The notes beneath the pieces were generated by a model. That model saw only the letters and a program-made list of their open reading frames with translations, had not been told where the DNA came from and searched no databases. A stretch of 64,000 nt of DNA from Escherichia coli. Lineage in GTDB: Bacteria; Pseudomonadota; Gammaproteobacteria; Enterobacterales; Enterobacteriaceae. A program made the translations under genes and the position numbers. This document shows, one piece after another, positions 41,248 through 41,256 of this stretch; within the stretch, counting starts at the first letter, position 1, and each line of letters begins with the position of its first letter. The stretch lies in NCBI RefSeq assembly GCF_003334335.1, contig NZ_QOWQ01000030.1, one strand, 5' to 3'.

Positions 41248-41256
41248 GGGGGGGGG
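41248..41256. repeat. G9 homopolymeric tract in the yfdF-fadL intergenic region
   Basis: atagcca-ggggggggg-agtatcctgg; nine consecutive G residues by manual count. Confidence 0.8.

Follow-up and report, generated by a model that had tools for sequence, protein, structure and literature searches.

The G9 homopolymer located between fadL and yfdF is probably a non-coding mononucleotide microsatellite without dedicated function, carried in spacer DNA of an islet that holds yfdF (icaT) and was acquired horizontally, and a regulatory role for this run is unlikely. In the window, i.e. the whole 64-kb stretch of Escherichia coli DNA that was analysed, the run reads GGGGGGGGG within CCAGGGGGGGGGAGTATCCTGG and corresponds to C9 on the coding strand of fadL and yfdF. 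The first-pass annotation had assigned it to the fadL-yfdF intergenic region, which the gene coordinates confirm: the run is found 123 bp 5′ of the yfdF start and 235 bp 3′ of the fadL stop (Table 1). It would thereby be placed between the terminator hairpin of fadL and the promoter of yfdF.

The reference genome of MG1655 (NC_000913.3) carries G9 at the same site. The source DNA of the window is close to K-12 without being MG1655, as the CPS-53 prophage is absent from argW (window 37753-37768) and two SNPs relative to NC_000913.3 are present in 8.4 kb (the listed window sites being 37753-37768 at argW, 39634 and 40248). No feature is annotated in the fadL-yfdF spacer of NC_000913.3, an Rfam search of the spacer returned chance-level matches only, none below E=1, and no description of a fadL-yfdF G run was found in the literature searched.

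Table 1. Features of the fadL-yfdF region, in window coordinates
Feature	Position	Strand	Basis
G9 homopolymer	41248..41256	+	seen in the sequence; column entropy; allele lists
Point equivalent to the ISEc20 insertion	41253..41254	.	CCA-G6 / IS / G4-AGTATCC in 85 other genomes
yfdF (= icaT/gem1)	40067..41125	-	annotation; ATG at 41125
MxiE box of the yfdF/icaT promoter, TGAGCGTTTTTTGATAG, with -35-like TTGATA	41182..41198	-	sequence and PMC9769918 Table S2
Putative -10-like TAATAT/ATATAT, 15-17 bp downstream of TTGATA	41160..41167	-	predicted from the sequence, in line with the MxiE-box/-35 layout of PMC9769918
fadL	41491..42837	-	annotation
Perfect 13-bp hairpin, terminator-like, just downstream of the fadL stop	41445..41473	.	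inverted-repeat search
Islet of ~1.55 kb (yfdF and both spacers), absent from B2 strains	39928..41478	.	CFT073 comparison

Rarity of the run and its genomic setting

Apart from the G9 at 41248-41256, no G or C run in the 64-kb window reaches 7 nt. The presence of a single G9/C9 is not significant by composition, since 20 of 100 dinucleotide-preserving shuffles of the window also contained at least one. For G7/C7, 4.8 matches were expected window-wide, and the three that were found overlap and all fall inside the G9 run, which thus appears as an exception in DNA otherwise avoiding such runs. With nine bases, the run also belongs to the length range in which a tract can slip (about 7-8 nt or more).

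In the B2 strain CFT073, just 61 bp and a single hairpin separate mlaA from fadL, and the segment from ~39928 to 41478 was therefore considered as an islet; terminal inverted repeats were searched for at its ends and none was found. The 3′ end of fadL adjoining it (window 41479-41900, compared with CFT073) is only ~79% identical between B2 strains and the K-12 type, which is very divergent for a core gene. Two other interruptions of the spacer were seen: in UMNF18, an IS1 lies at some point between 40900 and 41900, and the spacer of FORC_042 is broken near window position 41346. In the loop of the fadL hairpin (41458-41460), 71 sequences have TAT and 28 have ATA (GCTATGC versus GCATAGC), a flip such as template switching generates in quasi-palindromes. 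Finally, the + strand at 41400-41447 displays a strong Shine-Dalgarno sequence, AGGAGG (41400-41405), followed by an 11-codon ORF (ATG at 41412, stop at 41445-41447) ending at the hairpin; this ORF is probably due to chance, since strains differ in it by non-synonymous changes.

The G run falls inside the islet and coincides with a step in GC content, from 25-33% over yfdF and its promoter to 46-50%, yfdF itself being AT-rich (GC 25-35% in the composition scan). Given this coincidence, and given that yfdF is silenced by H-NS (PMC9769918), the run could be imagined as a boundary element, a GC-rich mark that would lie where the AT-rich, H-NS-bound block ends and would limit the spread of the filament towards fadL. 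Such a role is highly improbable: 9 bp is small compared with H-NS filaments, shorter or interrupted versions occur in many strains with the same neighbours, and the neighbouring sequence as a whole, rather than the run, accounts for the GC step.

Allele variation and the origin of the run

That the run would be prone to slipped-strand mispairing had been proposed from its length, and an invariant length across strains was checked as the outcome speaking against it. The length was found to differ: pure runs from G7 to G10 and several interrupted alleles exist between strains, which fits slipped-strand mispairing. A gapped-pattern scan, in which alleles were counted from the tract sequence alone, yielded 20 alleles in 108 metagenome contigs, the most frequent being G9 (23 contigs), GGGTGGTTTG (19), G8TG (16), G8 (10), GGGAGGTTG (9), G6TTG (8), G5TTG (6) and G10 (6). 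Six complete genomes displayed G9, G8, G8TG, G9TG, G5TTG and GGGTGGTTTG. On a larger scale, allele-specific queries of 62-64 nt, read in bands of at least 99%, gave ~900 G9, ~290 G8 and ~135 G10 among the 3,567 complete genomes with a K-12-like left flank, these counts being approximate because the bands include up to 86 partial-length matches from insertion-bearing genomes. In all, 4,298 genomes possess the spacer. Two scans of species-representative genomes for an outgroup or Shigella allele gave no match.

The variation is concentrated at the run. In an alignment of 99 spacers, the summed column entropy of the 10-nt bin at 41246-41255 reached 6.1 bits while no other bin exceeded 3.3 bits, and the bins covering the MxiE box (41186-41205) were almost invariant (~0-0.2 bits). 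Parsimony on a tree built from the 1.2-kb flanks required 31 allele changes at the run, against no more than 9 in any one column. However, divergent left flanks and recombination distorted the alignment, and counts by haplotype were therefore preferred over the tree.

Haplotypes were defined by grouping the spacer sequences with the tract removed. Of the 35 sequences of the K-12-type haplotype, 18 have G9, eight G8, eight G6TTG and one G10; a second haplotype (n=10) combines G8TG (six), G10 (three) and G9 (one), and a third comprises G7TG, G8TG and G9TG. By contrast, all four multi-member haplotypes with only the interrupted alleles GGGTGGTTTG or GGGAGGTTG are monomorphic. Variable pure runs beside stable interrupted ones are, as judged from these alleles, the signature of a tract that would have been born by T/A-to-G substitution and would then have slipped one base at a time. 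Several alleles have equal lengths, G6TTG and G7TG matching G9, and G8TG matching G10; this series points to T-to-G substitutions fusing G blocks, followed by one-base slippage in the long pure run.

From the allele series, the following origin can be proposed. An interrupted G-rich motif (GGGTGGTTTG / GGGAGGTTG) would first have undergone T/A-to-G substitutions fusing its short G blocks, along the paths G6TTG to G7TG to G9 and G8TG to G10. Once a pure run of ~8 nt had been reached, replication slippage would add or remove single Gs, and it is this slippage of the pure run that would account for related lineages with G7, G8, G9 or G10. In E. coli, the indel rate climbs exponentially with run length (PMC8510543). 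The run shows no difference in kind from bacterial non-coding mononucleotide microsatellites: like them, it is a pure G/C run of at least 8 nt with one-base differences among close relatives and stable interrupted versions, and no run nearby is longer, in keeping with the exponential dependence of the indel rate (PMC8510543).

The natural alleles are 7-11 nt long, so that the distance between the flanking DNA on its two sides differs by close to half a helical turn, and no constraint is visible. Pure alleles that vary, interrupted alleles that stay stable within a haplotype and a length free of constraint, the features looked for in a neutral microsatellite, were all observed. These indels also bear on a 51-codon ORF (41372..41217, minus strand) that spans the run and might suggest that it belongs to a coding sequence or, otherwise, to a small RNA gene. 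The natural alleles differ by 1, 2 or 4 nt and shift the reading frame, which indicates that the ORF is not coding; moreover, the ORF begins with TTG and is unannotated in NC_000913.3, and no Rfam match fell below E=1. Membership of a coding or RNA gene can thus be given next to no weight.

Within laboratory lineages, the allele is stable. G8 was found in E. coli W (two assemblies), KO11FL and LY180, and G10 in all three ATCC 8739 assemblies. HMS174, MC4100, EV36 and MG1655p have G9, as do most K-12 derivatives, and G8 is reported in the K-12 assemblies of MG1655 (CP025268), DH5alpha, NEB Turbo, NEB10-beta and Dam/Dcm. In the two G8 K-12 assemblies examined (NZ_CP025268.1 and NZ_CP053604.1), the missing G is the sole indel in 30 kb. 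Since one G is always lost, and in unrelated sublineages, undercalling by long reads was suspected, and the G8 calls in K-12 are probably such homopolymer errors. More generally, long-read errors may account for part of the G8/G9 differences, which leaves the frequency of true slippage uncertain. On the evolutionary scale, the run is mildly hypermutable; no sign of switching at the scale of a culture was found.

Position of the run relative to the yfdF promoter

In Shigella, yfdF is known as icaT (gem1); H-NS silences the gene, also in E. coli, and MxiE/IpgC activate it (PMC9241512, PMC9769918). Activation proceeds through a 17-bp MxiE box overlapping the -35 element, for which mutagenesis has been reported (PMC9241512, PMC9769918). 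The exact 17-mer TGAGCGTTTTTTGATAG is given as the yfdF box, 73 bp 5′ of the yfdF start, in Table S2 of PMC9769918. This box was found by eye in the window and then confirmed from that table. A search with the MxiE consensus allowing up to 3 mismatches returned zero matches, the yfdF box having been missed because it contains 4. A consensus promoter and terminator scan gave no more sites than shuffled sequences and reported neither the MxiE-type promoter nor the -10-like element. An NCBIfam search of the YfdF protein assigned it to no family.

The first-pass annotation had suggested that changes in run length could alter a promoter spacer. This suggestion does not hold for yfdF, whose validated MxiE box/-35 (41198..41182) is located 49 bp downstream of the run. 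From the predicted -10-like element, transcription would start near 41150-41155, which, together with the 49-bp distance to the MxiE box/-35, would put the run at roughly -95 to -100. It thus lies neither between the -35 and -10 elements, nor beside the -35, nor in a 5′ coding region. With the MxiE box/-35 ~50 bp and the predicted start ~95-100 bp downstream of the run, changes in its length would leave the core promoter untouched, and they appear neutral for yfdF expression. For 14 other MxiE-regulated genes, fragments of ~67 bp containing the MxiE box were enough for regulated promoter activity (PMC3299695). The published yfdF reporter was amplified with a forward primer corresponding to window 41490..41471 and so includes the whole spacer, with one allele only.

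Promoter-associated phase-variable homopolymers are known from the contingency loci of Haemophilus, Neisseria and Campylobacter. On the model of the poly-T tract beside the sabA promoter of Helicobacter pylori, slippage at the fadL-yfdF run could change the spacing from an upstream element to the MxiE box/-35, or the curvature of the DNA between them, and thereby tune or switch yfdF (icaT). The run resembles such tracts in that it varies between strains and precedes a regulated gene whose product is secreted or surface-related; its length is polymorphic, and the promoter downstream of it is regulated, silenced by H-NS and situated at a compositional boundary. A precedent also exists for rheostat homopolymers outside the -35/-10 spacer, namely the poly-T tract adjoining the promoter of sabA in H. 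pylori (PMC4081817).

Several observations nevertheless make a contingency locus or rheostat improbable. First, known phase-variable and rheostat tracts sit within the coding region, in the -35/-10 spacer or directly next to the -35, whereas this run is set 49 bp upstream of an activator box and not beside the -35. Secondly, non-slippery interrupted alleles are common and stable, so that nothing appears to maintain a slippery tract, and the alleles of laboratory lineages are stable across independent assemblies. Thirdly, the host differs from those of phase-variable homopolymers in having intact mismatch repair, and in E. coli the activator MxiE/IpgC is absent and yfdF is silent (PMC9241512, PMC9769918). 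Fourthly, MxiE/IpgC activate yfdF in both MG1655 and the O157:H7 strain ATCC 43888; the allele is G9 in MG1655 and, in the O157:H7 strain SS17, G5TTG. Tuning of the MxiE/H-NS control of icaT by run length would accordingly be very unlikely, and much less likely than a role of the run as a landing site for ISEc20, considered below.

ISEc20 insertions and implications

The context of the run had also been likened to the hotspots of IS186, whose target motif is GGGG(N6/N7)CCCC (PMC5009759). This comparison fails at the run, where the motif is absent; its sole match in the window is at 54929-54942. The likeness is limited to a G-rich run beside CC-containing sequence, with nothing further in favour of a hotspot. 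The palindromic CCCC half is missing, as the run is followed by AGTATCCTGG and CCCC is out of reach on either strand, no IS186 was found there, and 85 of the 86 genomes with a partial match at the site are explained by another element, ISEc20. An IS186 hotspot is consequently scarcely credible.

The run is a genuine insertion target for ISEc20, a member of the IS110 family, which was found inside it in 85 complete genomes by a search for the junction CCAGGGGGG/TGCCCC... In strain Ec-050 (NZ_CP086480.1), for instance, the sequence reads CCA-G6 / TGCCCC...GTAAC / G4-AGTATCC, with ISEc20 inside the run. Many of the 85 genomes bear ST167-type names, and the 85 insertions probably represent one ancestral event.

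A full copy of ISEc20 is present in 1,120 genomes. At five other sites of the element, in an rtcB-like gene, in pga, on a plasmid and at two further chromosomal loci, its left border is G4-6 and its right border G4-5; the matching empty sites are GGGCGGGG, G9 and G7. These other oligo-G insertion sites indicate that ISEc20 appears to target oligo-G runs. Both observations expected of an ISEc20 site were therefore made for the fadL-yfdF run, namely the element at the homologous site in other genomes and a like sequence at its other sites. The pga gene (penicillin G acylase) of E. coli IAI1 contains G9 within its coding sequence (TGG GGG GGG GCA), and the span matched in pga is 198 to 200 nt long depending on the genome, implying frameshifts or sequencing errors.

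IS110-family elements use sequence-specific targets, such as the REP sequences recognized by IS621. The fadL-yfdF run is comparable to these targets through the 85 insertions and the five other oligo-G sites, with the difference that the target of ISEc20 is a simple oligo-G run and not a complex repeat. The balance tips slightly in favour of rare oligo-G runs of ~7-10 nt, this run included, being a specified ISEc20 landing site, presumably through a C-rich non-coding-RNA guide. An Rfam search of the ISEc20 element returned zero matches.

As a microsatellite, the run provides a small, clean case of a homopolymer that would have been born from an interrupted motif and would then have slipped. 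The tract is outside the core promoter and may be ignored in MxiE-box experiments, unless an allele swap shows otherwise. The site is also useful for detecting homopolymer errors, since G8 is reported in several K-12 assemblies against G9 in the reference. If the landing-site reading is true, the fadL-yfdF run would be a predictable site of ISEc20 insertion, and its occupation in the ST167-like clone would part the yfdF promoter from the upstream DNA. For the IS110 family, these observations suggest a simple, testable target rule for one of its elements.
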